The notes under the pieces are model-generated. The model was not told the origin of the DNA. It saw only the letters and a list, made by a program, of their open reading frames with translations, and did no database searches. The translations under genes were made by a program, and so were the position numbers. A stretch of DNA of 64,000 nucleotides from a virus (lineage: Duplodnaviria > Caudoviricetes). Location of the stretch: the IMG/VR virus record IMGVR_UViG_3300029915_001170, positions 1-64,000 of that record, one strand, 5' to 3'. Positions 7,045 through 28,534 of this stretch are shown one piece after another; position 1 is the stretch's first letter; every line of letters begins with the position of its first letter.

Positions 7045-7377
7045 CTACTCCGACAATTTATCAATCAGTAATTTATTTTTCCGTCGTTTTAATTTCTTCC
7101 GAAGGCAATTTTTCCAATCCGGATTGTTAAGATAGGACACAGGAATTTTTAACGCACCTGATTTTCGAGCATTAATATAAATATCCGACTCTAATAATTC
7201 CATAGAAAGTACGTTTGCTTTTTGTTTTGAACTCCTGGCCCAAAAAGACGGTTTAACTAATCCAGTGCCTAGTTCTTCGATAAGTACATCTTGCCATTCA
7301 TCGTACAACGTTGCCGCATACGTCTTAATGGCAAGAAGATTTTTAATTGTTGTATTATATAAATCTTCAGAAATCAT
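7045..7377 (-). CDS. Hypothetical protein, ends LIDKLSE
   Basis: Distant paralogue (YDEWQ...NPDWK...KLSE). Confidence 0.65.
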   Translation of the reverse strand: MISEDLYNTTIKNLLAIKTYAATLYDEWQDVLIEELGTGLVKPSFWARSSKQKANVLSMELLESDIYINARKSGALKIPVSYLNNPDWKNCLRKKLKRRKNKLLIDKLSE

Positions 7378-13204: not shown

Positions 13205-14461
13205 TCAAGACTTTTTTAATTTATTTTCGTATAATTCAATTTTTGGTGCGGTGTTATTAACAATACAGTTTTCATCAAAAATCATTTTATTAATATTACG
13301 AGTTTTATATTCCGGAATCAAATACATATGTTCTTGAATCACAGATTCGCATAAAGTACGAAGGCCTCGCGCTCCTGTCTTTTCTTTTTTTGCTAGTTCA
13401 GCAATTTTATGAATGAACCCGGGAGTAAAATCTAATTCGATGCCGTCAATATTAAAATAAAATTTAAATTCATTGAGAATGTTATTATCTAATACTGATA
13501 AAATTTTAACTAACTCGTCAATCGATAATTCCGTTGTTCTTGTTTTAAGAGGAAAGCGGCCAATAAATTCGGGTATAATACCAAAATTAATAAAGTCTTC
13601 GGTTGTATATTTAGAACCTAAATCTGTTGACGGAGTGACCGTATCTAAAAATCCCAACCCCTGTTTTGTTTTCATCCGTGACTTAACAATTTCATTCATT
13701 CCAAAAAATGCGCCGCCACAAATAAATAAAATGTTTTTTGTATTGACTTCAATCATTTGCGGCAATGTAGGCCGCTTTGAAGTTCCATTAAGAGGAATTC
13801 TAATAATTGATCCCTCCACCAGTTTTAATAGCGCCGATTGCACACCGGATACTCGATTATCGCTTGTTGACGTCCTATTTTTCCCTGTTGCAATTTTATC
13901 AATTTCATCTATAAATACAATTCCGCATTCGGCCTTATCGATATCTCCATCGGCTTCGATTACTAATCTAGAAATAATAGTATCTACATTTTCGCCAATA
14001 TACCCAGCTTCGGTTAAGGTAGTTGCATCTACTGTAATAAACGGAACATTAAGAAAATGAGCAATAGATCCAATGAGTAGACTTTTCCCGCTGCCGCTGG
14101 GACCGGTAATAATAAGATTGCTCTTGTTAATAATCGCGGATGAATTTTCACTATATAGCATTCGCTTATAATGATTTGCCACGCTTACACTAAGCGCAAT
14201 TTTAGCCGGTTCTTGCCCAACTACAAATTTATCTAAATATTGCCGAATTAAAATAGGATTTAGAAGCTCGTTTTCGATTACTGCCGCCGGTTCGACATCT
14301 GGGTTAATGGTATGAATCAAACTACTACATCGCTGAATGCAAGAATCGCATATAAAAAAATCACCGGTGCCGACCAACTTAACGCTTTCGGCTCTACTTT
14401 TACCACAAAATATGCAATTTGATTGTTCGTCGGATTTACAACTAGAAGTTTTTTTAGTCAT
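13205..14461 (-). CDS. clpX: ClpX ATPase
   Basis: C4 zinc finger CIFCG..CDSC, Walker A GPSGSGKS, DATTLTEAGYIGE, Walker B FIDEIDK, LGF loop, TGARGLR. Confidence 0.95.
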   Translation of the reverse strand: MTKKTSSCKSDEQSNCIFCGKSRAESVKLVGTGDFFICDSCIQRCSSLIHTINPDVEPAAVIENELLNPILIRQYLDKFVVGQEPAKIALSVSVANHYKRMLYSENSSAIINKSNLIITGPSGSGKSLLIGSIAHFLNVPFITVDATTLTEAGYIGENVDTIISRLVIEADGDIDKAECGIVFIDEIDKIATGKNRTSTSDNRVSGVQSALLKLVEGSIIRIPLNGTSKRPTLPQMIEVNTKNILFICGGAFFGMNEIVKSRMKTKQGLGFLDTVTPSTDLGSKYTTEDFINFGIIPEFIGRFPLKTRTTELSIDELVKILSVLDNNILNEFKFYFNIDGIELDFTPGFIHKIAELAKKEKTGARGLRTLCESVIQEHMYLIPEYKTRNINKMIFDENCIVNNTAPKIELYENKLKKS

Positions 14462-14464
14462 GAT

Positions 14465-14644
14465 TTAGAATTGATTAAATAGTTTCCTAAAAGATAAGAT
14501 GTTGTTTTTATTAGCGAAATATAGCCAGGTTATGGCCGCCCCGCTAAGAAGAAAGATTAGCAAAATATAATGGTTCGAAGATTCACACAAGAAAGATACT
14601 AGGAGAAAAAGTGAAATAGGTAGGTGTCTAAAAATTGTTATCAT
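14465..14644 (-). CDS. Small two-TM membrane protein, not in the ORF track
   Basis: MITIFRHLPISLFLLVSFLC...ILLIFLLSGAAITWLYF; CATAAATA upstream. Confidence 0.45.
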   Translation of the reverse strand: MITIFRHLPISLFLLVSFLCESSNHYILLIFLLSGAAITWLYFANKNNILSFRKLFNQF

Positions 14645-14695
14645 TGGTTAACGGTCTCGCATTTAAACTCAGTCTACTTACACTGTTATTTATGC

Positions 14696-15127
14696 CTACT
14701 CTTTAAAATGGCTATTCCATGAATATCTACATACTTTCCTAAAAATCGATAATGATATGAATTTACTTTGGTTAACAGCTATAATACCTATGCACTTTGC
14801 TTTAGGTGAAAATTTTTTAACGGCCTTAACAATTTCACATACGGTATTGCCGGAATCAATAAAATCATCTACAATAATATATCTTTTTGAATTGGAAAAT
14901 CCTTCAACGAGAGAGCCGCTGTGATTTTTATCGCCCTCTTTTCGAACCATAATAAGATTTTTCTTCATTCTAACGGCCAAGGTCGGTGCGCATAAGGCGC
15001 CACTCATACCGCGAAAGGCAATCGAATCAAAAATAAGAGGTAGCACTATTTTCTTTGATGATACCAATTTTGTGTTAAGACTTTTTGGGTCCAAATAGGA
15101 ATAAAGATATTGTGATTTAATCGACAT
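14696..15127 (-). CDS. Type I phosphoribosyltransferase-fold protein
   Basis: PRPP-binding motif IIVDDFIDSGNT; RGMSG; VRK. Confidence 0.85.
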   Translation of the reverse strand: MSIKSQYLYSYLDPKSLNTKLVSSKKIVLPLIFDSIAFRGMSGALCAPTLAVRMKKNLIMVRKEGDKNHSGSLVEGFSNSKRYIIVDDFIDSGNTVCEIVKAVKKFSPKAKCIGIIAVNQSKFISLSIFRKVCRYSWNSHFKE

Positions 15128-15146
15128 TTCTAATCCGTCCTAGGTC

Positions 15147-15899
15147 TTAGAGCCTGATTAAAATTGCAGTTGCATTGTCGTGGGAGCCAGCGCTAATCGC
15201 AGACTGAATTACATCATCGGCGGTTACCGAGTTTACATCAATAAGAGTAGCTAGATTATTAACTAATTGGTCGGTATTTTTATGACCCGGATCTAAGATG
15301 CCATCGGTGCCGCATAAAACCCAACTATTTTTAGCCAATGAAATTCTAAAAACTTCTGGTTCACGATTAAGAACAACATCCAAATCACGATCACCCAATG
15401 CTCTGCTCATCTGAAGTCCACCGCCATCTAGATTCCGAGCATCGAATAAATAGCCGTCAACAATTATACCGTCTTCACTGGCAGTAGCAGCGGCCGCTTC
15501 CGCAGCATTAGACCGTACGTTATGTTCTGGTGCGACCCAGATTTTACCATCCGCATCCTTAATAATTACAGGGCTATCGCCAATTACAGCGACGTTTGCA
15601 AATTTTTGTTTTTCGTTTAAGTGAACAATAGAAGCGGTAGTGCCTGTATATGAATGTCTTAGGTCGAAATTCAAAATATGAATTACTTCGGAAAGAATAT
15701 CTAATCCCGCAAAATTTGACCCAAACAAAAGTTCTCGAAAAATACGAGAACAATTTGCGGCAGCATACTCTGCCGCAATTTCTCCCCCGTGGCCGTCAAA
15801 CACTCCGAAAAATACATTTGAACTATCAAGATGATCAATAAAAAATCTATCCTCTTGATGCAATCTACGATTTTGTTTGGTATCTACTGTCATCTTCAT
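15147..15899 (-). CDS. PP2C-family Ser/Thr phosphatase
   Basis: RLHQED, GVFDGHGG, GTTA, IGDS, SRALGD, TDG, HDNATA. Confidence 0.92.
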   Translation of the reverse strand: MKMTVDTKQNRRLHQEDRFFIDHLDSSNVFFGVFDGHGGEIAAEYAAANCSRIFRELLFGSNFAGLDILSEVIHILNFDLRHSYTGTTASIVHLNEKQKFANVAVIGDSPVIIKDADGKIWVAPEHNVRSNAAEAAAATASEDGIIVDGYLFDARNLDGGGLQMSRALGDRDLDVVLNREPEVFRISLAKNSWVLCGTDGILDPGHKNTDQLVNNLATLIDVNSVTADDVIQSAISAGSHDNATAILIRL

Positions 15900-16033
15900 T
15901 GTTCTACAATCCCTTTTATATCGTTGCTTGTTATAATTTCTACTGTTAACCGAAGATGTTCTTAAAAATAAGGTAGGAAAATCTACCTAAGATATCCGGC
16001 CAAGAGAACCCAACTATAATTGAGTATAGAAAT

Positions 16034-16315
16034 CTACGCCGAAAAACTGATAATCATTAATAAATCTTCGGGATTGGGAATTTCGTGATAATGCTTCTTT
16101 TCTTTCTTTTGCCTAACAAATTCATCAAAAATATCTTCGGCTTCGTATTTGGATACCGGATTTTCGGTTTTTGTACCAAATTTTAGTGTTTTCCCTCGGC
16201 GGCCGTATTCAAATTGAACAAGATATTTTCCATTTTCCACCGAAACGAGTTGAAGATAATATACCTTATCGGATGTTCCAATATTATTGTGTAGACTAAC
16301 CGCTTTTACAATCAT
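16034..16315 (-). CDS. WGR-domain protein
   Basis: SDKVY...YGRRG...A..F...K..K.Y. Confidence 0.8.
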   Translation of the reverse strand: MIVKAVSLHNNIGTSDKVYYLQLVSVENGKYLVQFEYGRRGKTLKFGTKTENPVSKYEAEDIFDEFVRQKKEKKHYHEIPNPEDLLMIISFSA

Positions 16316-16335
16316 AATATCCTTTCACTGATATT

Positions 16336-16363
16336 ATTATACAGCAAAAATATGGGTTGTCAA
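16336..16363 (-). promoter_or_regulatory. Sigma70-type promoter
   Basis: TTGACA-16-TATAAT. Confidence 0.7.
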
Positions 16364-16511
16364 TAGCGATTCCAAAAATAAAATGCGATCCAAATTAAAT
16401 ATGGAATTACATAGGACCAAACCGACCAATGTAAATTTAAAAAATTGTTCGAAAAGATAATTATCGCACAATTAATGGTTGCAAACAATAGATACCGAAT
16501 CACGGCATTCC

Positions 16512-16733
16512 TTATTGCAAGCCCAGCGATAAAATTGCGTCGTCGGCGAGGCCCGCTAGAACATCTCCCCAAAATTGCACTGCATCTTTAAGAAACCATT
16601 CCCACATAAAACCTAGTTGAATCCAGTCCGAATTAATCGGAAAGTCGATTACGTTAAAGGCTCGCAGCCCCAGTACTACTACGGTGATCATCGACGCGAT
16701 TAGTAGTTGAATTCGTAACATTTTTGCAGTCAT
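16512..16733 (-). CDS. Small membrane protein
   Basis: N-terminal hydrophobic helix; AAGGA RBS. Confidence 0.55.
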   Translation of the reverse strand: MTAKMLRIQLLIASMITVVVLGLRAFNVIDFPINSDWIQLGFMWEWFLKDAVQFWGDVLAGLADDAILSLGLQ

Positions 16734-16741
16734 ATTTTCCT

Positions 16742-16963
16742 TTATTCTGATAAGACTAAAAGTAGAGATTCGTCTTTGGTTAATTTTCTGATTATTTCTG
16801 TGGACATAATCATACCCTTGCCTGTTAATGAGTCAAGAGTTGCGACGTAAGAATAGCATTCATACGCTTTCCGGCCATCATACACCGTGTTTTTCAATAT
16901 TCTAGCAACTCCGGTGTATCGAGACCAGTTAAATTCAATGAAATCGCCTATGCTGTATTCCAT
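16742..16963 (-). CDS. Small SH3-like hypothetical protein, ends LLLVLSE
   Basis: IGDFIEF...G.ARI pattern; coupled start/stop. Confidence 0.55.
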   Translation of the reverse strand: MEYSIGDFIEFNWSRYTGVARILKNTVYDGRKAYECYSYVATLDSLTGKGMIMSTEIIRKLTKDESLLLVLSE

Positions 16964-17241
16964 TATTGCTCCAATTCGTAAAGTAAGGCGTCATCCGGCA
17001 GCAGGCTTGCAATCGTATGCCAATGATCACCTAAAAATTCTTCAATTCGAACATATCGTTTTAACCAAGCAGTACCTAGATGTTCAAAATGCAATTCACA
17101 ATAGTTTGTCCCAACTAATTTTTTAAGTGACACTGGAAATAGTGCAATTTTTAATGTTGCACGTCTATGTGGGCTGTCTTTTTTGTAATATTTGCAAATC
17201 AGAACACTGAGTTCGTTAAGGCGTTCGGTAATATCCGGCAC
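16963..17241 (-). CDS. Hypothetical protein
   Basis: Coupled ORF in the operon. Confidence 0.55.
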   Translation of the reverse strand: MPDITERLNELSVLICKYYKKDSPHRRATLKIALFPVSLKKLVGTNYCELHFEHLGTAWLKRYVRIEEFLGDHWHTIASLLPDDALLYELEQ

Positions 17242-17855
17242 TAGTTTATTCCAGTTAGCATTTCTCGAATTAATTCGATTTGAATTTGCAGAACATGCTT
17301 GATATTTTGATACGCTGCTTCCTGTTCAGGAAAATTATTTCGTGCAACGTGCAGCATTGGAAGAATATAGGTTTCGGTTTCTTCGATATATGACTGTTGC
17401 TTCTCGAGTGAAAAGACCCCGTGCATCGATTGGTGATTATGCATCCGATCGATGCCTTTTGCGATACTTGCAATCGGATCGTAAGCCATAGCAGAATAAT
17501 ATACATGTAGTGGTTTTTTAACGCCGGAAACTTGATTGGTCATTAGCTCCGTGCTATACGCAATTCGAGAGCCGAACATTTCAGTAATAGTAGAAATGCT
17601 CACATCATAATCTTCGCATACATCATGTAACCAAATCGTTGCTAGGGTTTCTTCAGGAAAAGCATATTGATCGATCAGAGTACGCGCAAAATTTGCTTGC
17701 GATACCTGATGCTGAAATTCTGGGGTGACGGTATCTTTGCGTAATCCCGTGTGTTTGCTCTGAGCAAAATTCATGGCTCGAAGAGCAACATGATATCCAT
17801 GACCCAATTGCCAATATCGCATTGCGATCCGAATCTTTTCAAAATCTTGATGCAT
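17241..17855 (-). CDS. RelA/SpoT-type HD hydrolase (small alarmone hydrolase/Mesh1-like)
   Basis: FAQSKHTGLRKD..TPEFQH, WLHDVCED, KGIDRMHN. Confidence 0.8.
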   Translation of the reverse strand: MHQDFEKIRIAMRYWQLGHGYHVALRAMNFAQSKHTGLRKDTVTPEFQHQVSQANFARTLIDQYAFPEETLATIWLHDVCEDYDVSISTITEMFGSRIAYSTELMTNQVSGVKKPLHVYYSAMAYDPIASIAKGIDRMHNHQSMHGVFSLEKQQSYIEETETYILPMLHVARNNFPEQEAAYQNIKHVLQIQIELIREMLTGIN

Positions 17856-17956
17856 TTAATGCCGCTTTCTCATCTACAAATATAGTATATCATTTTCTTT
17901 GACGAAAGTCTAGTCTATTTTCAAAGTGTACTACAATATTTCAGTACGGGTTACCT

Positions 17957-18739
17957 CTAGTAAAGAAAATCCGCCGTCTCCGGAAAATATCTTCGATAAA
18001 AATCAGAGTGCACTTTAATTAAAAAGGCTTTACTATCGAACCACACTTCCCTGTTTTCTTTTGGTAAGTGCGATATTGTTGTCAGTTTGAATCCTCCGCT
18101 CTTGGGCCGCAAATATAAACTTAAAAGGGAGATAACATCCGATTCGGTGCTGCAAGAGGCTAAATCTTGGGCAAATTTAGGTGTAAATCTCCACGTCCAA
18201 CCATTACCTAGATGTTTTCTTTTATAAAAAATTTCTGATATTAGTTTTTTATATGTATCGCCAGAAATATTTTTGAGTTGTAAAAAGGAAGCAAACATCT
18301 CTATTGTATTGTTTCCCAAATTCTTATAAAATGTGTCCCACATATCCGAACCGGAACATACTCCGATTTTTGCTCCATCAAACGGCAAAACAAGATATGC
18401 ATTTCCGTAGCCGGAAGCATACCTTAGGCTAGTTGTCGCGATAATACTTTGATTTCTTTTTGGATATGAGGCCCAGCTCGGAAGATTACTGAATAACAAC
18501 GTATATTGATTGGTTGTATTCGCGCTCTTTCGAATTACTCGTTTCGGATCAGTAATTAGTACCGAAGATTCATACGAGAATTTATAGTCGAAGCCTTTAT
18601 ATATCGCGTGACCTTTTTTAAGCGCGGCCAACGCCTCTGGTGCAAATTTTATTATATTTGTATAAAGAGTTTTATCCTGCTTTCGAAAGAATTCTTTGGT
18701 GCGGGTATCGTTCTCTAAAATAATCTCATTTGTTTTCAT
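17957..18739 (-). CDS. Putative late, head-packaged protein, possibly ADP-ribosyltransferase-like
   Basis: MKTNEIILE N-terminus; TATAAATA directly upstream; IYKG...ATTS...ASGYG...REVW pattern. Confidence 0.5.
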   Translation of the reverse strand: MKTNEIILENDTRTKEFFRKQDKTLYTNIIKFAPEALAALKKGHAIYKGFDYKFSYESSVLITDPKRVIRKSANTTNQYTLLFSNLPSWASYPKRNQSIIATTSLRYASGYGNAYLVLPFDGAKIGVCSGSDMWDTFYKNLGNNTIEMFASFLQLKNISGDTYKKLISEIFYKRKHLGNGWTWRFTPKFAQDLASCSTESDVISLLSLYLRPKSGGFKLTTISHLPKENREVWFDSKAFLIKVHSDFYRRYFPETADFLY

Positions 18740-20392: not shown

Positions 20393-20689
20393 TTAATCTG
20401 CCGGTACCCATCCGATTCCTGGAAGTTGATCCATTTTTCCGTGATCTCCGGCTAACAATCTCCAACTACCATCTTTAATGCGGATAACTTCTCCACCGGC
20501 AATTTCTTCGGCGGGATTTGTAATTTTACGCCATCCGCCGCAAGAACATGTAAAAGGAAAGAGTCGTTTGTTACATGGTGAAATACACCCGCCGACCATA
20601 ATACTTCCCTGCTTTATTAACCTTTGCGCTTCTCCACGCGAACGCGCCAGGTCCAACTCCAATTCCAATATCGCCTTGTCGAGTTTCAC
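20393..20689 (-). CDS. Stand-alone S4 RNA-binding domain (TyrRS C-terminal-like) with a Cys-rich insertion
   Basis: KLDKA...LARSRGEAQRLIKQGSIMVGG...KITNP...G.VIRI. Confidence 0.75.
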   Translation of the reverse strand: MKLDKAILELELDLARSRGEAQRLIKQGSIMVGGCISPCNKRLFPFTCSCGGWRKITNPAEEIAGGEVIRIKDGSWRLLAGDHGKMDQLPGIGWVPAD

Positions 20690-20701
20690 GCCTAGCCCTT
20701 T

Positions 20702-20944
20702 CTAGTCAGTTGGAATCAAATTGTCATCCTCATCGAAGTAGAAGTAACCGTAATACGGCAAATCCGCTTCGGCGTAATAGCGTTCGGTATGTCCATCTCG
20801 GTCAACGCCGTTTTCATCATACCCATAAGAATCGAATCCGTCATCGTCATATAGGGACGAATCATGGCCATAAAAAGTTTGCTCATATACCCTATTGTCG
20901 GGGTAGACGCATCGAATTGTCGGCGAATATTTTCCTACGCTCAT
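20702..20944 (-). CDS. Small acidic protein with (Y/F)D.DG repeats
   Basis: YDDDGFDSYGYDENGVDRDG; AAGGAGG RBS. Confidence 0.7.
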   Translation of the reverse strand: MSVGKYSPTIRCVYPDNRVYEQTFYGHDSSLYDDDGFDSYGYDENGVDRDGHTERYYAEADLPYYGYFYFDEDDNLIPTD

Positions 20945-20955
20945 AATATACCTCC

Positions 20956-21123
20956 TTATTGAATAACCAATTTCGTACCGTCTTCCATCACCAAAATAGC
21001 CGGTGGGTAACGATTACCAGCACGAAGACCTCGCAGTTCCATGAGCAAATTGGAGATCTCCAATCCTTCCGGATCCATATTCTTACGGAATTTGATAATC
21101 AGCTCGTTCAATCTGGTGTTCAT
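20956..21123 (-). CDS. Small hypothetical protein (start MNTRLNE)
   Basis: AAGGA RBS and promoter upstream. Confidence 0.6.
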   Translation of the reverse strand: MNTRLNELIIKFRKNMDPEGLEISNLLMELRGLRAGNRYPPAILVMEDGTKLVIQ

Positions 21124-21141
21124 ATTTTCCTTACTGTGATA

Positions 21142-21170
21142 AGTATAGCAAAATATGGCATACTTGTCAA
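21142..21170 (-). promoter_or_regulatory. Sigma70-type promoter with extended -10
   Basis: TTGACA-17-TATACT, with TGc before the -10. Confidence 0.8.
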
Positions 21171-21315
21171 CCGTATTGATTTTAAAGGGGTTATCGGCCA
21201 AAGGGATCCTAAAAATTAGGATCCCTTTGTATAATGGAGGCCGAGACCGAAATTGCATCGGTGTAAATGTGCTTTGCAGGCACACGCATAACTACTCTGC
21301 CACCCGGCCATTAAA

Positions 21316-22137
21316 TTATTTGCATTGCGCTTTCTTCGCTTTTTCGAAGGTGCCCAGATCAACTGGCCACAAAATCGTCGATTCTTTATAGTCAACAGGA
21401 AGTGGAAAATTAACATCGGCTTCGTCAGAAATATTATGCACAGTAGAAGTAACCGTTGTTAGGTCATTTCCATCAATTCCTGCCGCAGGAAAAATAAAGG
21501 GTAATACCTCATGTGTTTGCAGATCAACTACGATTTTATAAAAAGCATACGGAACATCTACCTGATCAATGCCAATTTTTTTATCAACATTTGTATGATA
21601 TAATGGACCAGCATAAATTAATAATGCATGATTTCGTTCATATGCCCAGGCTCGAACATCAGATTCAAGTAATTTCCAGGAGCCACGATTCAATTTTGCA
21701 GTTTGCGGTGTCATGTTTGTAAGAATAAAAGATTCCTGTTCAACCTTGGCATTCCACGACATATCTCCGTTATTCGCAATATGCCCTGTATCATACCCGG
21801 ATCCGGCATAATCTTTTGGGTCGGCTCTTTTATTGCTCGGCAGCGATTGGTCTGCGGCAAATGAATTTGATCGAGGCACGCAACCAATAGATCGACTCGG
21901 TGTTAATACATATGACACCCAAACCGGAATCTTAGCAATTGTATCCGATTCTAAGATATACGCATCTCGGCAAATCACTGTTCCATCTGGTTTATCCGGT
22001 AAATTAGGTTTAATATGACTCGGTTGCCCAAATGGAACAAATTGCGTGCATTGATTGGTAGATAACGGCCTTGGTTGTTGCCCATAAACTGAAATCGTCA
22101 TTACACTGCATAAGATTAAAAATATAGATTTTATCAT
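21316..22137 (-). CDS. Secreted DNA/RNA non-specific endonuclease (NucA/EndoG family)
   Basis: Signal peptide; DYAGSGYDTGHIA, ESFILTNMTPQ...LNRGSWKLLE, VPYAFYKIV. Confidence 0.9.
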   Translation of the reverse strand: MIKSIFLILCSVMTISVYGQQPRPLSTNQCTQFVPFGQPSHIKPNLPDKPDGTVICRDAYILESDTIAKIPVWVSYVLTPSRSIGCVPRSNSFAADQSLPSNKRADPKDYAGSGYDTGHIANNGDMSWNAKVEQESFILTNMTPQTAKLNRGSWKLLESDVRAWAYERNHALLIYAGPLYHTNVDKKIGIDQVDVPYAFYKIVVDLQTHEVLPFIFPAAGIDGNDLTTVTSTVHNISDEADVNFPLPVDYKESTILWPVDLGTFEKAKKAQCK

Positions 22138-22170
22138 TTAAATTGGTAGCACTCCAGATTTCTTCGAAAT

Positions 22171-22356
22171 TCATGCTTTATGACAAGAACCGCTTTTCCA
22201 ACGGTCATCGTCTTTGCTAAGTTTACTCACAGAATTTTTATTCCCGTGAACTTTAATAAACAATTCTTTTGCATCGCAACAAGGATTTTCATGCCGAATC
22301 AATCCGGGAAAATAGTGGCAAGCGCACTCGCAGGGTTGTTCTCGATTTTCAATCAT
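22171..22356 (-). CDS. Small Cys/His-rich protein
   Basis: CECACH...HENPCC; AAGGAG RBS. Confidence 0.55.
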   Translation of the reverse strand: MIENREQPCECACHYFPGLIRHENPCCDAKELFIKVHGNKNSVSKLSKDDDRWKSGSCHKA

Positions 22357-22378
22357 ATATTTGCTCCTTGTGGTGAAA

Positions 22379-22468
22379 TGGCGGAGTAGGAGAGATTTGA
22401 ACTCCCGATACCGTTTCCGGCATAATAGTTTTCGAAACTATCGGCTTAAGCCACTCGCCCACTACTCC
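22379..22468 (-). tRNA. tRNA-Ser(CGA), CCA encoded
   Basis: GGAGTAG/CTACTCC acceptor, ATAGT-TTCGAAA-ACTAT anticodon arm, long V arm, TTCAAAT T-loop, G73. Confidence 0.92.
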
Positions 22469-22481
22469 AAATTTTTAAAAC

Positions 22482-22571
22482 TGGCGGAAGGTAAGAGATT
22501 CGAACTCTTACTACCTGTTAAGGTAGATGGATTAGCAATCCATTGCAACGCTCCAACTTTGCCGACCTTCC
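22482..22571 (-). tRNA. tRNA-Ser(GCT), CCA encoded
   Basis: GGAAGGT/ACCTTCC acceptor, ATGGA-TTGCTAA-TCCAT anticodon arm, long V arm, TTCGAAT T-loop. Confidence 0.92.
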
Positions 22572-22582
22572 AATTCCTGTCA

Positions 22583-22786
22583 CTAGTTAAAAATACGTTG
22601 CCCCAATTTCAAATATGGCCCAGAATTTTTCAATCCATCAAAAAGATAAGTTCGGTCCTTATGAAATTGTGCCAACTCGTATTCGCGCATGTCGGCAAAA
22701 TTCTTTTCGCATTCGTGATGCCATTTTGCAAGATGGTCGATTTCTTCTCGGGTAATACCGATATCTAGTGTATTATTTTCTGACAT
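22583..22786 (-). CDS. Hypothetical protein
   Basis: AAGGA RBS. Confidence 0.55.
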   Translation of the reverse strand: MSENNTLDIGITREEIDHLAKWHHECEKNFADMREYELAQFHKDRTYLFDGLKNSGPYLKLGQRIFN

Positions 22787-22794
22787 ACAATCCT

Positions 22795-23079
22795 TTACTT
22801 GCGAACCTTATTACGCTCTCGATCGTAAACATCTACGCTGGTCGGTTCAATTTCATTCGTATGAATTAAAGTCAAGGCCCCACCAACATCATGACACTTT
22901 CTCCGAATCAACTCATTGTTAGATGCAACCTTGGCAAAAGATAAAAGATTTTTTTCCGATGTTAAAATTCGAAGTTCATTTTGAATGTCAGTGATTCTAT
23001 CATTTATCTGATCAATTCGAATTGATTGTGTAATTCCTAGAGCACAAAGATCGATAAGTGCCATATTTTCTAAATTCAT
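22795..23079 (-). CDS. Hypothetical coiled-coil protein
   Basis: 94-aa ORF downstream of the tRNA(CCA). Confidence 0.55.
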   Translation of the reverse strand: MNLENMALIDLCALGITQSIRIDQINDRITDIQNELRILTSEKNLLSFAKVASNNELIRRKCHDVGGALTLIHTNEIEPTSVDVYDRERNKVRK

Positions 23080-23145
23080 TTTTTCTTCTTTCTAGTACTG
23101 AATTCGTCCTTTACTTAATTTGAAAACCCAGATACCTTAAAAATT

Positions 23146-23237
23146 TGGCAGGAAATAAGGGACTCGAACCCTTGATGTTAAGTTTTCACTTATAGTGGGT
23201 TTGGAGTCCACTGCTGTCGCCACTGAGCCAATTTCCT
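23146..23237 (-). tRNA. tRNA with CCA anticodon (Trp) and an atypical 21-nt variable arm
   Basis: AGGAAAT/ATTTCCT-G-CCA acceptor; GTGGA-CTCCAAA-CCCAC anticodon arm; V region TATAAGTGAAAACTTAACATC; AAGGG-TTCGAGT-CCCTT T arm. Confidence 0.88.
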
Positions 23238-23239
23238 GT

Positions 23240-23279
23240 AAAGAAAATGTCCTGGATTATTAATAATCCAGGACATTTT
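23240..23279 (-). terminator. Attenuator terminator immediately upstream of the tRNA(CCA)
   Basis: 36-bp palindrome AAAATGTCCTGGATTATT/AATAATCCAGGACATTTT followed by CTTT on the minus strand. Confidence 0.8.
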
Positions 23280-23299
23280 GAAATTCAATACGAATTTCG

Positions 23300-23377
23300 T
23301 TATCTACCTGGATCCGTTGAAGAACAAGACCACCAACTGAATAGTGAACTCAACGAATTTGCTAAAACTTTTTTCAT
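23300..23377 (-). CDS. Trp attenuator leader peptide MKKVLANSLSSLFSWWSCSSTDPGR
   Basis: Translated by hand; TGG TGG at 23335-23330; purine-rich AAAGAAGG just upstream; not in the ORF track. Confidence 0.75.
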   Translation of the reverse strand: MKKVLANSLSSLFSWWSCSSTDPGR

Positions 23378-23463
23378 ACCTTCTTTATAAGTCTACAACT
23401 GGTTGTCCAATATAATCATTATGTTTTTACAACTGATTGTTTTCTTTACCAATCACTACATTA

Positions 23464-23492
23464 ATAGTACATTTTTATTTATGCCGTGTCAA
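23464..23492 (-). promoter_or_regulatory. Sigma70-type promoter for the leader/tRNA transcript, with CATAAATA in its spacer
   Basis: TTGACA-17-TACTAT. Confidence 0.75.
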
Positions 23493-23559
23493 GAGAAAAA
23501 TTAAGTATTTTTGAAAATTTTTCTTTAAACCTCAGCAACAAATATAGTTTAGCATATAC

Positions 23560-23817
23560 CTATTTAGAATGCAAGATTAATCTATCATTTAAATCGATTC
23601 GAGTACCGTGTGTTACAATGGCCAGCGCGGAGTTGATTGCCGAAACAGTTGCAGTAGATGTGAGACTTGCACAGTTAGTGGTGCGAGCGGGAATGCCACC
23701 CACGCCCGAGTTCGACCAGTTGATTGCCTGGCTGGAGTTGAGAATAGGCGACCACAACTGAGCGTAGCCCATGCATGGAAGAATTACGAACAATAAGGCT
23801 ACGAAAATCCGCTTCAT
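23560..23817 (-). pseudogene. Truncated paralogue of the 1090-4605 gene; homology breaks at about 23620
   Basis: MKRIFVALLFVILPCMGYAQLWS..INWSNSGV-GGIP...SAINSALA vs MKRFLIALVFMLLPCVVHAQAWS..VDWSVAGIPGGIP...SAINTALA. Confidence 0.75.
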
Positions 23818-23898
23818 ACTTTCACCTTTTGCGTCACTCCATACATGTGCCGCCGTTCTCTTGCTGCTCAGGCACCGCAGTGCATACAGTATAGTTGC

Positions 23899-26800
23899 CT
23901 AGAACACCGTTACGTTGTAGGCCAGACTTGGCGGCGTTCCGGTCCCGCAGACATAGACCGTCACTGTATTTGTTGCCGTCACTGATGCCCGAAGATTAAA
24001 CGCTCCTCCCACATCAGCGCCCGTTGTGCTGCTAACTACTACTGGATGCCCGACCACTGCACCCGTCACGCTTGCCGTGCCTGAATCGCAGGTTGCCGTT
24101 AGAGCCGTTCCGGTGATCGTGCCCGTCGTGCCAGAAAGCGCAAGCTGCACATACCCCGCCGCTGGACCCTGATAGCCGAGAGCCGTCGAAGGGATTACGG
24201 TAACCGCGCCCCGTACTTGGTATGATCCTTTAATGTCGAGGTTGCCATATGGATCTAAGATCAAGTCGTTGAAGCTGTTAGTGGGATCATGCACTAATAG
24301 ACTGTATGCAGCACCCACTCCTGAGCCAATAGACAAACTCGTCGCCGCAGGAGAATTTAGGCTTGGAGCAACAAGACCGCCGCCTATACTTGTACTAACA
24401 GACCCGGTCCCGCACAGAACCTGGCTTGCATTATTTTGAATTCCGATGTTTATTGAATACATGCCGGAATTGAAATTGCATGTTCCGGAGGTATCATTTC
24501 CAACTACACTCGCGGTGTTCACATTGATAAGGTCTACTCCATTGACAGAGGAAGGGGCGTTGATATAATTTCCAGAGACGGTAATCTGGGCTGCGGCCTG
24601 TCCATTTGTACCGGCTTGGATGTTTACCGTTCCAAGACTTGCTTCAAAGAAGTTTTGGGATACATCCGTATTAACGCTGGCCCCCAAGAAGATGTGACCG
24701 CTGAGTGTAGCTGCGGTGCCATTGCCCTCGAACGCGATTCCTCCATCGTAAGTGTTGGAAAAGGTCGATCCGGTTGCCGTATTGTCAGCATAATCGTCGA
24801 AGATTCCCCAGAGTGAATTGGCTTCAATCGTTCCACCGCTGATGTGGATTGCGTTTGATGCCGTCCCGGTGGGGGTGTAACCGACTTCCCACACGCCATA
24901 TTTGTTGCCGTAAGAGTTCAGATTCAAGACGGTTGACACTCCCGATCCGTGGAAGTAGACACCCGCACCGCCGGGGAAATTCTTGGTTGTGACGTTAGTT
25001 AGGTTTGACCCGTAGAATCCCCGCAGCTCAATCCCATTAGAACCGCTTGTCGATGATATTCCGTCAATCACGCAATTAGTTACGGTGAATCCTAAGTCTT
25101 GCAATATAGCGTTCCCGGTTGCCAGAATCGCAGAGCCGCTTCCTTGCCAATTCAGGACCGTACCGGGATCGCAAACTAATGCGTACTTTTCATTGCTGGC
25201 AGTGAGAGCAAACGCAGCTTGTGTTGTGAAGACATAAGTCCCAAGGGGAACGGACACAGTTCCGCCGCTGGGCAATCCAGCTACGGAGGTATTGATTTTC
25301 GCGCCTATATCTGCGCCGGTTTGCAGAGCCGCATTCACTACTCCGTTCACAGCGCCAGCCGCGACGGTGCCTGAGAACATCGCATTTCCTGAATCGTCAA
25401 TCTTCCACATATAAGCACTGTTGCTGCTGTTCGCTCCATATACTTCTGCTCGCGTGTCATTGGCGGCAGGAACAATAGCGATAGCAGTCTGTGTGAGGCT
25501 AGGATACAAAGTAAGTGCATTAGCCTGTAAAGTATAGAAATTAAACGCATCGCTCGAATAATTCTGAATATAATCTGCCCCGAGCGTATCTATGCTTGTT
25601 CCATTTAATAGTCCTTGTACCCAGTTCACGTTTACTCTTCCGGAAACCGAACTTGACGGCACATACCAGGAATATGCCGAATCGTAAATATTGAAATTGA
25701 ACGTGTTGGCATCAATATTCGCAGTAGCGGTCGTAGTTGTTGTGGCAGATATTCCAATAGATGAAGGGGTTCCATTTCCTTCAAAAAACCCCTCAAATGT
25801 ATTCGCCTCGATTTGTTTTCCTGCATTTAAAAGAGTGATCCCAGTGGCGGGAATTGAGGTAGATACGGCAAGAAAAGTCAGGCCCTTAAACTCATTTGCG
25901 TTAATCCAACCACCATTCGAGGTTGAAAGAACCAATGGCCGCAAAACGCCGTTAGTGTACATTCCATTGACATGGGTATACGCCGCGCCATAGTTCAAAG
26001 TTGGGCAGTTAATAAGTAGTCCTATTCCTGGCGCTGAAGTTGCTCCATCAATAGATAAATTATCAATTTCAGGCCCTATAATTGGCCCCCCGGTGGTGCA
26101 GGTAAAACTTACCGCACTTCCAGAATACGTGATTGGATAATTCCCCAGCCCAACATGAAGTCCTTTGAGAATACTCCCTCCCACTACATGCACCACGTCT
26201 GATGACACTGCTGCGGGAATAATTGTCGTTGCATCCGAGAAATCAAGCTCTTGGCCAGCAGTTAGGGAAATCGTCCCGGCAAGAACCTGCGTAGTAGTTC
26301 CAAGGCAACTTGCATCTACCTTACCCAGAGACAATGGGAGTGATGCAAAGGCATTCGCTATTTTCACATCGGCAGTCGAGCCTGAAAAATAACAGGCTGA
26401 CACACCGTTATTGACCAAAGGGGATGTAATCGCAGCGCCCGCCGTGACGGTGCCTGGGAATGTGCAAACTTGCGATGATCCTGTACCAACGCAAGAGATT
26501 CCACTAGGAAGTGATCCTGTTACCCATGCAGTACCATTCCAGTACAGCTGAGTCTGATTGGTAACACTCCAGTAAGTGCCGCCAACAGGATAAGTAAGAA
26601 TTGCTTCCACATTTGCATAACCATACGCTCCAGCGATCGCATTGAAGCGTGGGGCTAGGATGTTTGCATCTACGAGAGTTGAAATATTCTGCGAGACTCC
26701 AGAAATAGGTGTTGTTGTGATACCGCATTTTGACTGCGCTAACGGACACACAGTGAACTGCCACTGGCTTCCTACAGGAGTTATTTTGCTGTTATCATAG

Positions 26801-27054
26801 ACAGAAAGTGAAAAAGAACTTGTTCCATCTAAAGTAACAGGTCCTTGATTCAATATCGATGGAGAAAGAGGTGCTCCATTAATATTGTAGATGCTGATAT
26901 TTGGTTGAGCAGAATTAGGTACGAACTGTACCGTGACCGAGCCATTTGACCAAAGCGTTCCATCGCTATCTGTGACTGTTGCGGTTACGTTAGTTGTCTG
27001 AGCCGCTGTAATAGTGGCAAAAAGAAAAAAGAAACATGCAAACTTCTTCAACAT
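23899..27054 (-). CDS. Modular tailspike/receptor-binding-like protein with two beta-helix modules and an N-terminal signal-peptide-like sequence
   Basis: AAGGAG RBS before MLKKFACFFFLFATITAAQ; two (A)D.(GA)KI.....LP..G.V module starts. Confidence 0.7.
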   Translation of the reverse strand: MLKKFACFFFLFATITAAQTTNVTATVTDSDGTLWSNGSVTVQFVPNSAQPNISIYNINGAPLSPSILNQGPVTLDGTSSFSLSVYDNSKITPVGSQWQFTVCPLAQSKCGITTTPISGVSQNISTLVDANILAPRFNAIAGAYGYANVEAILTYPVGGTYWSVTNQTQLYWNGTAWVTGSLPSGISCVGTGSSQVCTFPGTVTAGAAITSPLVNNGVSACYFSGSTADVKIANAFASLPLSLGKVDASCLGTTTQVLAGTISLTAGQELDFSDATTIIPAAVSSDVVHVVGGSILKGLHVGLGNYPITYSGSAVSFTCTTGGPIIGPEIDNLSIDGATSAPGIGLLINCPTLNYGAAYTHVNGMYTNGVLRPLVLSTSNGGWINANEFKGLTFLAVSTSIPATGITLLNAGKQIEANTFEGFFEGNGTPSSIGISATTTTTATANIDANTFNFNIYDSAYSWYVPSSSVSGRVNVNWVQGLLNGTSIDTLGADYIQNYSSDAFNFYTLQANALTLYPSLTQTAIAIVPAANDTRAEVYGANSSNSAYMWKIDDSGNAMFSGTVAAGAVNGVVNAALQTGADIGAKINTSVAGLPSGGTVSVPLGTYVFTTQAAFALTASNEKYALVCDPGTVLNWQGSGSAILATGNAILQDLGFTVTNCVIDGISSTSGSNGIELRGFYGSNLTNVTTKNFPGGAGVYFHGSGVSTVLNLNSYGNKYGVWEVGYTPTGTASNAIHISGGTIEANSLWGIFDDYADNTATGSTFSNTYDGGIAFEGNGTAATLSGHIFLGASVNTDVSQNFFEASLGTVNIQAGTNGQAAAQITVSGNYINAPSSVNGVDLINVNTASVVGNDTSGTCNFNSGMYSINIGIQNNASQVLCGTGSVSTSIGGGLVAPSLNSPAATSLSIGSGVGAAYSLLVHDPTNSFNDLILDPYGNLDIKGSYQVRGAVTVIPSTALGYQGPAAGYVQLALSGTTGTITGTALTATCDSGTASVTGAVVGHPVVVSSTTGADVGGAFNLRASVTATNTVTVYVCGTGTPPSLAYNVTVF

Positions 27055-27064
27055 AAAAATCTCC

Positions 27065-28372
27065 TTACAACCAACTGTTAGTTTCAAGAAACTGGTATCT
27101 CTTGAGAGTTGATTTGGTAATGTCTGTGCGATATTGCATGTTTGGGATGTTGATACGACCGATTCTTCTATCACAAGAGCTTGAGGCTTCTTCGATGGAA
27201 GAGCCGACTCCAATGGGAGCGCAGATATACCCATAGTTGCCGCTTGTTATGAGTTTCTTGCCATCTTTTGCAAGCTTTACATCGAACAAATACGTGTTTA
27301 CAAGCTGCTCAAGATCCTCAGGATCAAGCCCTTCTACTGGTACATCTTTCGCTTTTGGAAGCCGTAGCTCTGTCGGATACGGCGGTATTGAGAGCGTAAC
27401 AGATACTCCGAACGGAGCAGTCCATTTAATCTCCGGCGTCTTTCCAGCGGCGATATTTTGAAGAAGTTTCGCATATCCATGTCCATACATCGTTGCAATT
27501 GTGGGACAGCACAAGTAACCAAAGCGAGGAGTCCATTCTAGAGCATAGAGCTTATCTTCGGTTACGATAGAGTTGAGATCGAGAATTCCTCTAAAGCCAA
27601 CAGCTTGCAAGAATGGGATCGCTTTCTTCAATCCCTCCCTGTAGATTCTTGATTCATCCGAGAGTGCAAAAATGAGATTTCCAGAACAACCTGTGTTTGG
27701 ACCTTTGTTTTCATTCATGAACTTTTTTTCTTCCAACGTGCCAGTTAGAAGATAAAAATCAGTCCCATTAAAAAACCCTTCTATCCCAATCTCCTGCCCT
27801 TTGACAAACTCTTGCAGGATAAAAGGAGCATGTTTAGCAGCATTCCACAAAGTGTCGATATACTCAATAAGATCAGCCGCGCTTTTTGCAACGTAGGTGG
27901 TGGCTGTGTCCTGAGTCTGGCCTCCTTCTGTAAAAGGCTTAAATACATACGGTCTGTCATTCTTTCGTAGAAAAGCCTTAGCCTCAGTGGGCGTGTTAAA
28001 TCTGGTATATGGGGGTACATTGATTCCGCAGTCCTCCATGGCTTTAAGGCCAGCTTCTCTGTCGTCCTCGAGCAAATGCTCGAAAGAACCGTCACCGAGT
28101 GTGGCTGCTTGCATCCTTGAAGCATCAGCTTGTTTCGCTTTGCCGGTAAGATCAAACAGCGATAAATCATATCCAGCATAATCAGGATATCCAAATCCTG
28201 CCACTGTACGCCGATGATCTAGCGATAGCTTCTTGGGGGGTGGTATTAGCCCCCCAAGAACATCCACGTAGTCAGATTTGGATAGGTAGTAATCTACATC
28301 GTGGCCTTCTGCAAGGAGCCGAAGTACAAACCACGCTCCCAAGCCTGTATACGAGGACATTGCTATTTTCAT
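27065..28372 (-). CDS. PurD-like ATP-grasp ligase
   Basis: LEDDR..G, GINVP, YVFKP, FILQEFVKGQE, KKFMNENKGPNTG, LEWTPRFG. Confidence 0.8.
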   Translation of the reverse strand: MKIAMSSYTGLGAWFVLRLLAEGHDVDYYLSKSDYVDVLGGLIPPPKKLSLDHRRTVAGFGYPDYAGYDLSLFDLTGKAKQADASRMQAATLGDGSFEHLLEDDREAGLKAMEDCGINVPPYTRFNTPTEAKAFLRKNDRPYVFKPFTEGGQTQDTATTYVAKSAADLIEYIDTLWNAAKHAPFILQEFVKGQEIGIEGFFNGTDFYLLTGTLEEKKFMNENKGPNTGCSGNLIFALSDESRIYREGLKKAIPFLQAVGFRGILDLNSIVTEDKLYALEWTPRFGYLCCPTIATMYGHGYAKLLQNIAAGKTPEIKWTAPFGVSVTLSIPPYPTELRLPKAKDVPVEGLDPEDLEQLVNTYLFDVKLAKDGKKLITSGNYGYICAPIGVGSSIEEASSSCDRRIGRINIPNMQYRTDITKSTLKRYQFLETNSWL

Positions 28373-28384
28373 CGAAGCTGCTCC

Positions 28385-28534
28385 TTACCCCTGATGCTTT
28401 GCTTTACGGTGGATACTATCGCCGCTGCTTGTTTTGTGTTCGCCTTTACAAGCGGCTTGAGAGCCAGCAGCCTGCACACGTTCTTGCATAGCCTTGGCTT
28501 CCTTCAAAGAAAGATGCGCACTTTGACCAGACAT
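28385..28534 (-). CDS. 49-aa peptide (MSGQSAHLSLKEAK...KAKHQG), not in the ORF track
   Basis: AAGGAGGT RBS; fills the gap between two genes. Confidence 0.6.
   Translation of the reverse strand: MSGQSAHLSLKEAKAMQERVQAAGSQAACKGEHKTSSGDSIHRKAKHQG

Follow-up and report, generated by a model that had tools for sequence, protein, structure and literature searches.

A phage tRNA(CCA) gene with a long variable arm, probably tryptophan-accepting, and a class of long-arm phage tRNAs with isotype-typical discriminators

A phage from peat soil, represented by a 99,640-bp IMG/VR virus record (IMGVR_UViG_3300029915_001170), was analysed over its first 64 kb (64,000 nt, referred to as the window), with the remainder of the record used where stated; the subject is a tRNA(CCA) gene at 23146-23237 on the minus strand that carries a hairpin in an enlarged variable region. 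It is best explained as a phage-encoded, UGG-reading tRNA that is most likely charged with tryptophan by the tryptophanyl-tRNA synthetase (TrpRS) of the host, the arm being an add-on that does not change its identity (probability about 0.6, judged from sequence features). The gene represents a new structural variant of a familiar gene type. It belongs to a large, diverse and apparently undescribed group of long-armed phage tRNAs, and the long-arm tRNA-Trp is part of a wider habit across isotypes, in which the discriminators typical of each isotype are retained.

Structure of the tRNA(CCA) gene

23146-23237, minus strand: tRNA(CCA) gene, 92 nt, with an encoded CCA end and the anticodon at 23202-23204 (ARAGORN, Rfam and own covariance models)
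23174-23194, minus strand: 21-nt variable region UAUAAGUGAAAACUUAACAUC, consisting of UA, a 5-bp stem UAAGU/ACUUA with a GAAA cap (hairpin 23179-23192) and ACAUC (from the sequence and the minimum free energy (MFE) fold)

ARAGORN called a 92-nt tRNA-Trp(cca) at these positions on the minus strand; the Rfam model RF00005 scored the gene at 49.9 bits (gathering score 29), assigned about 17 extra nucleotides to the variable region and flagged non-standard pairs at 13-22 and 31-39. In the minus-strand reading the acceptor stem is AGGAAAU/AUUUCCU, with A1-U72, G2-C71, G3-C70, three A-U pairs and U7-A66, and the discriminator is G73. The D stem GCU/AGC has 3 bp and a C13xC22 mismatch; the anticodon stem GUGGA/CCCAC contains an A31.C39 mismatch and carries the 7-nt loop CUCCAAA with U33 and A37; and the T arm is AAGGG-UUCGAGU-CCCUU, giving a branch of type 7/5 (acceptor/T). 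Neither the acceptor stem nor the T stem contains a mismatch, and the CCA end is retained, as are G18G19, U33 and A37. The gene is the only tRNA-Trp in the 25-tRNA set of this phage.

The variable region comprises 21 nt with a hairpin, not the 4-5 nt of class I tRNAs, and is laid out as 2 nt on the 5' side, a 5-bp stem, a 4-nt loop and 5 unpaired nt on the 3' side. The MFE of the hairpin is -2.7 kcal/mol, and it is considered to lie beyond chance because equal stability was reached by just 0.95% of 2000 shuffled versions of the 21 nt. An initial annotation of this DNA had described the 21-nt region with its TAAGT-GAAA-ACTTA hairpin, together with G73, the A1-U72, G2-C71 and G3-C70 pairs and the A31-C39 mismatch, and every one of these features was recovered in the minus-strand sequence. 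Use of the arm as a spare anticodon arm was considered and rejected, the arm loop being GAAA and not an anticodon-like 7-nt loop.

Amino-acid identity

Identity rules were taken from Giege and Eriani 2023 (PMC9976931). Passages of this source and of PMC5370408 describe bacterial TrpRS as reading the anticodon, G73 and the first acceptor pairs, and seryl-tRNA synthetase (SerRS) as ignoring the anticodon and recognising G73, acceptor pairs and the long arm with its geometry. The major tryptophan set is complete in the tRNA(CCA), with the CCA anticodon, G73, A1-U72, G2-C71 and G3-C70. The G1-C72 pair that is usual in an alignment of 78 phage tRNA-Ser is absent, its place being taken by A1-U72, and the 5 unpaired 3' nucleotides of the arm lie outside the range of 0-3 found in 80 phage tRNA-Ser. 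The reading as a UGG decoder charged with tryptophan (same probability as above) rests on the full major tryptophan set, an only partial serine set, and a first pair and an arm geometry that are both wrong for serine.

Scores were obtained with three home-made covariance models, built from 62 canonical phage tRNA-Trp (R1), 78 phage tRNA-Ser (R2) and 78 long-arm tRNA(CCA), with the 23146-23237 tRNA left out of training (R3). The tRNA(CCA) scored 47.3, 53.7 and 65.4 bits on R1, R2 and R3, respectively; the corresponding values were 29.3/29.2, 81.4/66.4 and 55.3/47.2 bits for the two tRNA-Ser of the phage, and 38.6, 35.0 and 27.2 bits for its tRNA-Cys. The preference between R2 and R3 was reciprocal for the Ser tRNAs and the tRNA(CCA), and on the canonical tryptophan model R1 the latter had the top score of the region. 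Isotype scoring, which the initial annotation had suggested as a check, thus placed the long-arm tryptophan model first and left the serine model still above the canonical tryptophan model. Nearest-neighbour identity after removal of anticodon and arm was weakly informative (best Trp 49/65, best Ser 48/65).

Several observations weigh against tryptophan charging, or against an arm that is kept for a function, and are gathered here. For Bacillus subtilis TrpRS the determinants G2-C71, G3-C70, G4-C69 and G5-C68 are listed in the relevant passage of PMC9976931, and in the tRNA(CCA) pairs 2-71 and 3-70 are G-C and pairs 4-69 and 5-68 are A-U; the acceptor pairs that the initial annotation matched to TrpRS determinants were A1-U72, G2-C71 and G3-C70. 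Among the serine determinants given in the same passage, the long arm, G73, G2-C71 and G30-C40 are present. The serine score of 53.7 bits is not low, and the training set of R3 was picked on the CUCCAAA loop and partly on the CCUG end, so that much of its 11.7-bit edge may be built in. The pair C11-G24, which is a further serine determinant, is also present. The A31.C39 mismatch could lower function, and relatives with GGACUCCAAAUCC have A31-U39. No close homologue of this tRNA was found, and its conservation amounts to strain-level identity only (P ~0.05, see below). Class I tRNAs of at least 82 nt make up about 3% (18/558) even in loci that were picked for canonical tRNA-Trp, a background that fits tolerated neutral insertion as well. 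The Rnl1 ligase family (PF09511) was found in 4/44 long-arm-Trp and 3/44 canonical-Trp records of similar total size.

The class of long-arm tRNA(CCA) genes

Viral contigs and one genome each of 185,579 species were scanned with a pattern made of the Trp-type anticodon loop, a gap forcing a variable region of at least 10 nt, a standard T loop and a CCUG end. In viral contigs 83 matches were obtained, and the 80 loci that were read gave 75 ARAGORN calls of tRNA(cca), 66 of them at least 80 nt long; the species genomes gave 75 matches, which yielded 43 tRNA(cca) calls, chiefly from loci where 7-20 tRNAs are packed into 8 kb. When the CCUG constraint was dropped, at least 27 further distinct long-arm tRNA(CCA) were found, and among these 27 matches listed G73 was present in 22 and U72 in 17 (G1.U72 in 9, A1-U72 in 7). 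Pooling of the pattern scans with ARAGORN calls gave at least 109 distinct tRNA(CCA) with a variable region of at least 9 nt, from viral contigs and from dense tRNA arrays of metagenome-assembled genomes.

An MFE hairpin was predicted in 92/109 of the pooled tRNAs, and 65/109 were more stable than 95% of their own shuffles. GNRA caps closed 44/65 of the tetraloop hairpins (expected 1 in 32). Stems of 3-4 bp were found in 64/92 and unpaired 3' tails of 3-4 nt in 58/92, so that the usual layout is 1 nt, 3-4 bp, the loop and about 3 nt. In the same loci, the 3' tail of tRNA-Ser was 0-1 nt in 51/80 (maximum 3), that of tRNA-Leu mostly 2 nt and that of tRNA-Tyr 3 nt in 16/32; the class layout is Tyr-like rather than Ser-like. 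Arm sequences and lengths vary widely across the class, and some members have D arms of the Ser, Leu or Tyr type.

The bodies are adapted to the arm. The 13-22 pair is formed in 29/65 long-arm tRNA-Trp and in 19/40 other long-arm class I tRNAs, compared with 517/668 short-loop tRNAs (Fisher tests, 1e-7 and 8e-5, respectively). This loosened pair is a habit of class II tRNAs and marks structural co-adaptation in the long-arm tRNAs. The C13xC22 mismatch of the 23146-23237 tRNA is common to its nearest subfamily (L094, L101 and L112), in which the 12-23 pair covaries. Compared feature by feature with the class, the 23146-23237 tRNA has a GAAA-capped 5-bp hairpin, an ACAUC tail, an isotype-typical acceptor end and C13xC22.

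Close relatives of the gene itself were sought separately. Its arm had no match in an exact-pattern search of viral contigs, a metagenome scan gave three other long-arm tRNA(CCA) but no close relative, and for the neighbouring 1111-aa protein and nuclease no relatives were found by search. In isolated phages, window positions 21000-25000 had no megablast match, the 23146-23237 tRNA as query retrieved only T-arm pieces of tRNA-Gln, and of five long-arm tRNA-Trp queries one retrieved only tRNA-Trp genes of 68-76 nt and four retrieved nothing. Two further observations were made in the scanned loci. Canonical (72-76 nt) and long-arm (83-88 nt) tRNA-Trp occur together in L063, L065 and L146, and are adjacent in L063. 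At L229:497-547 and L242:10781-10831, tRNA(CCA) calls of 93-95 nt have a much longer insert and A or U as the discriminator.

Long arms on other isotypes

Long-arm versions of at least 14 other isotypes were found in the same loci as long-arm tRNA(CCA), amounting to about 56 distinct long-arm class I tRNAs. Their discriminators were A73 in 15/15 tRNA-Lys, G73 in 8/8 tRNA-Asn, U73 in 6/6 tRNA-Cys, A73 in 5/5 tRNA-Ile, C73 in 4/5 tRNA-His and A73 in 4/4 tRNA-Met. The phage studied here has further tRNAs with long or enlarged variable regions, all located in the record beyond the window:

Record (G000:C1) 81640-81728 (L002:1640-1728), minus strand: tRNA-His(GUG), 89 nt, 4-bp arm GUUC-AAAA-GAAC, AUC tail, C73
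Record 84838-84921 (L002), minus strand: tRNA-Gly(UCC), 84 nt, 4-bp arm UGUC-GUAA-GACA, U73
Record 89197-89276 (L002), minus strand: tRNA-Val(UAC), 80 nt, enlarged variable region, no hairpin predicted, A73
Record 94275-94355 (L002), minus strand: tRNA-Asp(GUC), 81 nt, enlarged variable region, no hairpin predicted, G73

The discriminators of these four (C, U, A and G) are those usual for each isotype. Since long-arm tRNAs for Lys, Asn, Cys, Ile, His and Met keep their own discriminators, as do the His and Gly tRNAs of this phage, the arm has the appearance of an addition and not of a change to serine identity; such a change would not predict long arms on isotypes that retain their own discriminators. 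As side observations, the tRNA-His(GUG) of the phage has U at position -1, hence no encoded G-1; the long-arm class I tRNAs of loci L051-L280 and L313-L392 mostly have capped hairpins; and the arms of tRNA-Ile(UAU) have a common 7-nt loop, CCAGAUU/CAGAUUA.

Upstream region

23244-23279, minus strand: perfect 36-nt palindrome forming a 16-bp hairpin (-21 kcal/mol), followed by a U-rich tail of the type UUUUCUUU; terminator-like, ending 6 nt before the tRNA
23300-23377, minus strand: candidate leader open reading frame (ORF) MKKVLANSLSSLFSWWSCSSTDPGR*, 25 codons, with tandem UGG at 23330-23335 and a GAAGG ribosome-binding site
23464-23492, minus strand: promoter-like site TTGACA-17-TACTAT upstream of the leader (consensus scan, 10/12 matches; weak)

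With the strong hairpin only 6 nt upstream, the tRNA(CCA) gene has no room for a promoter of its own, and its expression would proceed by read-through of this hairpin, possibly under control of the leader with its two tryptophan codons (WW). The hairpin was not flagged by a consensus terminator scan, and the promoter scan gave 3 sites where 4.7 were expected in shuffles. Base pairing is feasible between the last codons of the leader ORF and the hairpin's 5' arm (-13.0 kcal/mol; 1.2% of 1000 shuffles were as good), and the resulting duplex is a possible antiterminator. The order of promoter-like site, WW leader, antiterminator and terminator has a geometry that would fit classical attenuation, and the element is put forward as a candidate only.

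Evidence against an attenuator came from three sides. WW mini-ORFs were no more frequent upstream of tRNA(CCA) genes (4/122, 3.3%) than upstream of other tRNAs (38/1122, 3.4%); the region evolves fast, one strain showing 18 differences plus 5 gaps over 485 nt; and a difference at 23380, common to two strains, weakens the ribosome-binding site. The initial annotation had seen in a WW attenuator an argument for serine charging, by which translation could continue without tryptophan. The leader, the terminator-like hairpin and the possible antiterminator can all be drawn in the sequence, while the missing enrichment speaks against the attenuator itself, which in any case would suit a circuit for plain Trp-tRNA supply at least as well as the serine model.

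Record continuity and strain-level conservation

Positions 20500-28500 were present, at half or more of their words, in at least 15 DNA runs, 14 of which are peat metagenomes. An 11-kb contig from an independent peat metagenome (X6) had no differences over 20500-23273. A contig of a diverged strain (X15) had 12 differences over 22028-23273, none of them inside the three tRNA genes; the chance that all 12 would miss these genes is P ~0.05. Contigs of two public runs end exactly at the 36-nt palindrome, which we infer to be the expected behaviour of de Bruijn assemblers, and in the contigs of these two runs no single one spanning 23250-23273 was found. Continuity across the palindrome is accepted because of a 24-nt overlap, equal depth on either side (13.8/14.4 in one run, 11.5/9.6 in the other) and the source record itself. 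Metatranscriptome contigs from two runs overlap parts of 20588-23064 and 24235-24708 and not the tRNA(CCA), a result that is uninformative for a small structured RNA.

Genomic context

All four tRNA genes called by ARAGORN in the window lie on the minus strand (Cys, Ser(CGA), Ser(GCU) and Trp(cca)); the whole record holds 24, or 25 with the inclusion of a tRNA-like gene of 137 nt that contains a 61-nt insert.

22379-22468 and 22482-22571, minus strand: two ordinary class II tRNA-Ser, CGA and GCU, respectively (ARAGORN; 81.4 and 66.4 bits on the Ser model), used as internal comparison
Record 99498-99634 (L002:19498-19634), at the record end, minus strand: 137-nt tRNA-like gene, called tRNA-Lys(UUU), with the 61-nt insert in the anticodon loop
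4672-9510, minus strand: tRNA-repair set as a whole, T4-like, in the same accessory module as the tRNA(CCA)
4672-5772, minus strand: Rnl1-type RNA ligase (Pfam PF09511, 1.4e-16)
7377-8477, minus strand: second RNA ligase with PHA02142 OB fold (PF09414, 8.4e-15, with PF21189)
8542-9510, minus strand: polynucleotide kinase-phosphatase (PNKP; PF25109, 1.3e-28, with PF13671)

Inside the insert of the tRNA-Lys(UUU)-like gene a T-arm-like hairpin was seen, and the gene scored 52.7 bits over 134 nt on the Rfam tRNA model. Cores of the TrpRS/TyrRS (tyrosyl-tRNA synthetase) type and of the SerRS type were searched for and not found in the record. TGG accounts for 351 of 25,147 codons in the phage genes and the standard code fits; recoding was rejected, since reading TGA, TAG or TAA as sense gave no longer mean ORF.

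Kinship to relatives identified through the DNA polymerase is confined to the core at 25.6-70.1 kb of the record. These relatives, represented by 43 loci, are phages whose genomes measure about 46-50 kb, have terminal repeats and contain hardly any tRNAs (RF00005 in 2/43), and in one of them (G008) the ends of the core abut directly. The remaining ~55 kb (window 1-25600 and record 70100-99640) form an accessory block with lower G+C that holds all tRNAs and is flanked by two fibre-like paralogues, of 1111 aa at 23899-27234 and of 1199 aa at 70602-74201. The CheckV estimate of '100% complete' may reflect the small 46-50-kb relatives. Also in the accessory module, at window 13205-18739 on the minus strand, are a ClpX-like AAA ATPase with a zinc finger, a PRTase-domain protein, a PP2C phosphatase and an HD_4 (RelA/SpoT-type hydrolase) protein. 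Among the tRNA genes lies a non-specific DNA/RNA endonuclease (PF01223; window 21316-22137, minus strand), a 52%-identical homologue of which (L062:7018-7797) is located about 350 nt from a long-arm tRNA-Trp on a viral contig of 178 kb that is unrelated to this phage. Window 20393-20689, on the minus strand, encodes a protein of 98 aa in which an S4 RNA-binding domain was recognised (26 bits); S4 is the type of domain that holds the arm of tRNA-Tyr in TyrRS.

Alternative explanations

In the preferred reading, host TrpRS would charge the tRNA, no TrpRS-type synthetase having been found in the phage record; the RNA would combine a normal bacterial tRNA-Trp body with a compact GNRA-capped hairpin inserted at the variable loop and, as in class II, a D stem of 3 bp. 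It belongs to a widespread class in phages and mobile arrays, made up of class I isotypes (mainly Trp) that have gained an add-on arm with apparently unchanged identity. Why the arm is kept is a separate matter. The arm may keep off host enzymes whose site of attack or binding is the variable-loop face of tRNAs, an idea that is advanced tentatively; protection is a fair suggestion because the phage has 25 tRNAs, PNKP and two ligases and because nucleases that cut the variable loop are known for tRNA-Tyr. Of the two proposals in the initial annotation, the nuclease-evading tRNA-Trp is the one that fared better: the tryptophan identity set, the recurrence of the class and the repair genes agree with it, and the evasion as such stays at the tentative level just given. 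Association was assessed in 44 of 80 long-arm loci (one per tRNA family) against the 44 largest of 80 control records. Besides the nearly equal counts for Rnl1, which lend the protection idea no general support, the S4 domain showed no association (1/44 in both sets); a tblastn search run without a control placed homologues of the ligase, the endonuclease or the HD protein near long-arm tRNA-Trp genes in several loci. It is rather unlikely, but the nearest competitor, that the tRNA is functional and Trp-charged and that its arm brings no benefit, insertions arising and being tolerated with only compact capped hairpins surviving. This account agrees with the preferred reading on tryptophan charging and departs from it solely over the reason for the arm's retention; it is consistent with the low rate at which long-arm class I tRNAs occur over many isotypes (the 18/558 and the ~56 distinct ones elsewhere), with the absence of a link to Rnl1 or S4-domain genes and with the highly varied sequences and lengths of the arms. 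The GNRA bias of the tetraloops, the shift to 3-bp D stems and the recurrence of arms in unrelated bodies point instead to selection on structure, and the joint maintenance of canonical and long-arm tRNA-Trp in L063, L065 and L146 also speaks against an arm without benefit.

Serine charging, alone or together with tryptophan charging, was the other proposal of the initial annotation: SerRS would accept the tRNA through the long arm and G73, and serine would be placed at tryptophan codons. To the serine determinants already listed may be added, in favour of this model, the 3-bp D stem (rules in passages of PMC9976931), the higher score on the serine than on the canonical tryptophan model, the Ser/Leu/Tyr-type D arms of some class members and the precedent of mischarged class II tRNAs with foreign anticodons in nematodes (PMC3333845). 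Set against these are A1-U72 in place of G1-C72 and the 5-nt 3' tail; the phage's own Ser tRNAs score 13-28 bits higher on the serine model; U72 and G73 prevail in the 27 unconstrained matches listed; long arms occur equally on tRNAs with A73, U73 or C73; and the 351 TGG codons of the phage's own genes would be hit. Serine decoding is accordingly disfavoured and regarded as improbable. About equally improbable is a decaying or non-functional gene that drifts out of use, as two helix mismatches and an inserted hairpin might suggest. Both C13xC22 and A31.C39, the hairpin 6 nt upstream that leaves no space for a promoter, and the failure to find a close homologue would agree with decay, but C13xC22 recurs, alongside covariation of the 12-23 pair, in the nearest subfamily and is a common trait of long-arm tRNAs, the acceptor and T stems and the conserved positions named above are unimpaired, and the tRNA is identical in a strain with 12 flanking differences and is the sole tRNA-Trp of a 25-tRNA set. 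Marginally less probable still is a tRNA-shaped RNA with a non-decoding role, as a decoy for a host tRNA nuclease or toxin or as a regulator. Some room for it is left by the unusual body, the control by a terminator hairpin and the co-resident canonical tRNA-Trp in three other loci; all features for charging and decoding are kept, however, no specific partner is indicated, and the nearby S4-domain gene is not associated with the class.

A more far-reaching version of the preferred reading, Trp charging with an add-on arm, would join it to the upstream region in a self-sensing rescue circuit. If host tRNA-Trp were cut or uncharged in infection, ribosomes would stall at the two leader UGG codons, the antiterminator would form, and read-through would yield a nuclease-shielded, TrpRS-charged, armoured tRNA-Trp. 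Such a circuit is thought quite unlikely.

Comparison with known tRNAs

In bacteria, a long variable arm is by textbook account restricted to Leu, Ser, Tyr and Sec tRNAs. A search of the literature (full text, supplements excluded) turned up neither a long-arm tRNA-Trp nor any account of phage class I tRNAs with long arms; the irregular tRNAs listed in supplements of PMC5389517, which lie outside this search, might include members of the class. With canonical class I tRNA-Trp(CCA) of bacteria and phages the 23146-23237 tRNA shares CUCCAAA, G73, A1-U72, G2-C71, G3-C70, the 7/5 branch and the encoded CCA, and it differs from them by the 21-nt variable region with its 5-bp hairpin, the 3-bp D stem, A-U at 4-69 and 5-68, and A31.C39. 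The long arm and the loosened 13-22 pair are shared with class II tRNAs (Tyr, Ser), and the usual class layout is nearer to phage tRNA-Tyr, with its 3-nt tail in 16/32, than to tRNA-Ser. Passages of PMC5370408 describe the arm of tRNA-Tyr as bound by the S4-like domain of TyrRS and TrpRS as the sister enzyme of TyrRS, and a passage of PMC9976931 gives G73 as an antideterminant for TyrRS and leucyl-tRNA synthetase (LeuRS). TrpRS, unlike TyrRS, is without an S4-like domain, and unlike tRNA-Tyr and tRNA-Ser the 23146-23237 tRNA has the anticodon CCA, G73, A1-U72 and a 5-nt 3' tail, a length that none of the 80 tRNA-Ser reaches.

The allo-tRNAs and (8/4) tRNA-Ser/His of bacteria and phages, as presented in the sections of Mukai et al. 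(PMC5389517) used here, combine 8/4 or 9/3 branches with Sec-like D arms and are predicted to accept Ser. Like the present class, they are non-standard long-arm tRNAs, some with foreign anticodons, from metagenomes and phages (PMC5389517, same sections). Unlike allo-tRNA and tRNA-Sec (8/4, 9/3 or 8/5 branch, long D stem), the tRNA(CCA) has a 7/5 branch, a 3-bp D stem and a Trp-type acceptor end. Non-canonical V-arm tRNAs of eukaryotes were reportedly treated by Hamashima in 2016. Nematode nev-tRNAs and other eukaryotic V-arm tRNAs have in common with the tRNA(CCA) a class II shape and an anticodon that is not for Leu, Ser or Tyr (PMC3333845); nev-tRNAs have Leu-type bodies and are Leu-charged, whereas the body and acceptor end of the tRNA(CCA) match the amino acid of its own anticodon.

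Phage tRNAs that evade tRNA-cleaving defences are described in PMC11555353, and cleavage of the tRNA-Tyr variable loop by Septu and Retron-Eco7 in PMC13096335 and PMC12673091. Like defence-escaping phage tRNAs, the tRNA(CCA) differs from the host tRNA in a nuclease-recognised region, and its phage also encodes tRNA repair enzymes. Unlike them, it would owe escape to an added arm, a route that is not described in the searchable literature. We know of no nuclease aimed at the variable loop of tRNA-Trp.

Implications

In phage arrays, tRNA-Trp and tRNAs for His, Gly, Lys, Asn, Cys, Ile and Met carry the arm and keep their identity marks, unlike the textbook restriction of long arms. Should their charging be correct, class I tRNAs with an added arm would be accepted by synthetases, EF-Tu and the ribosome much more broadly than has been assumed, which would be useful for tRNA engineering; if some of them are serylated, phages carry natural missense decoders. 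For the conflict between phage and host over tRNAs, the question is raised whether the arm blocks defence nucleases or toxins. In the broader form of the rescue-circuit idea, likewise thought quite unlikely, phages would generally mark or protect their own class I tRNAs by equipping them with capped arms.

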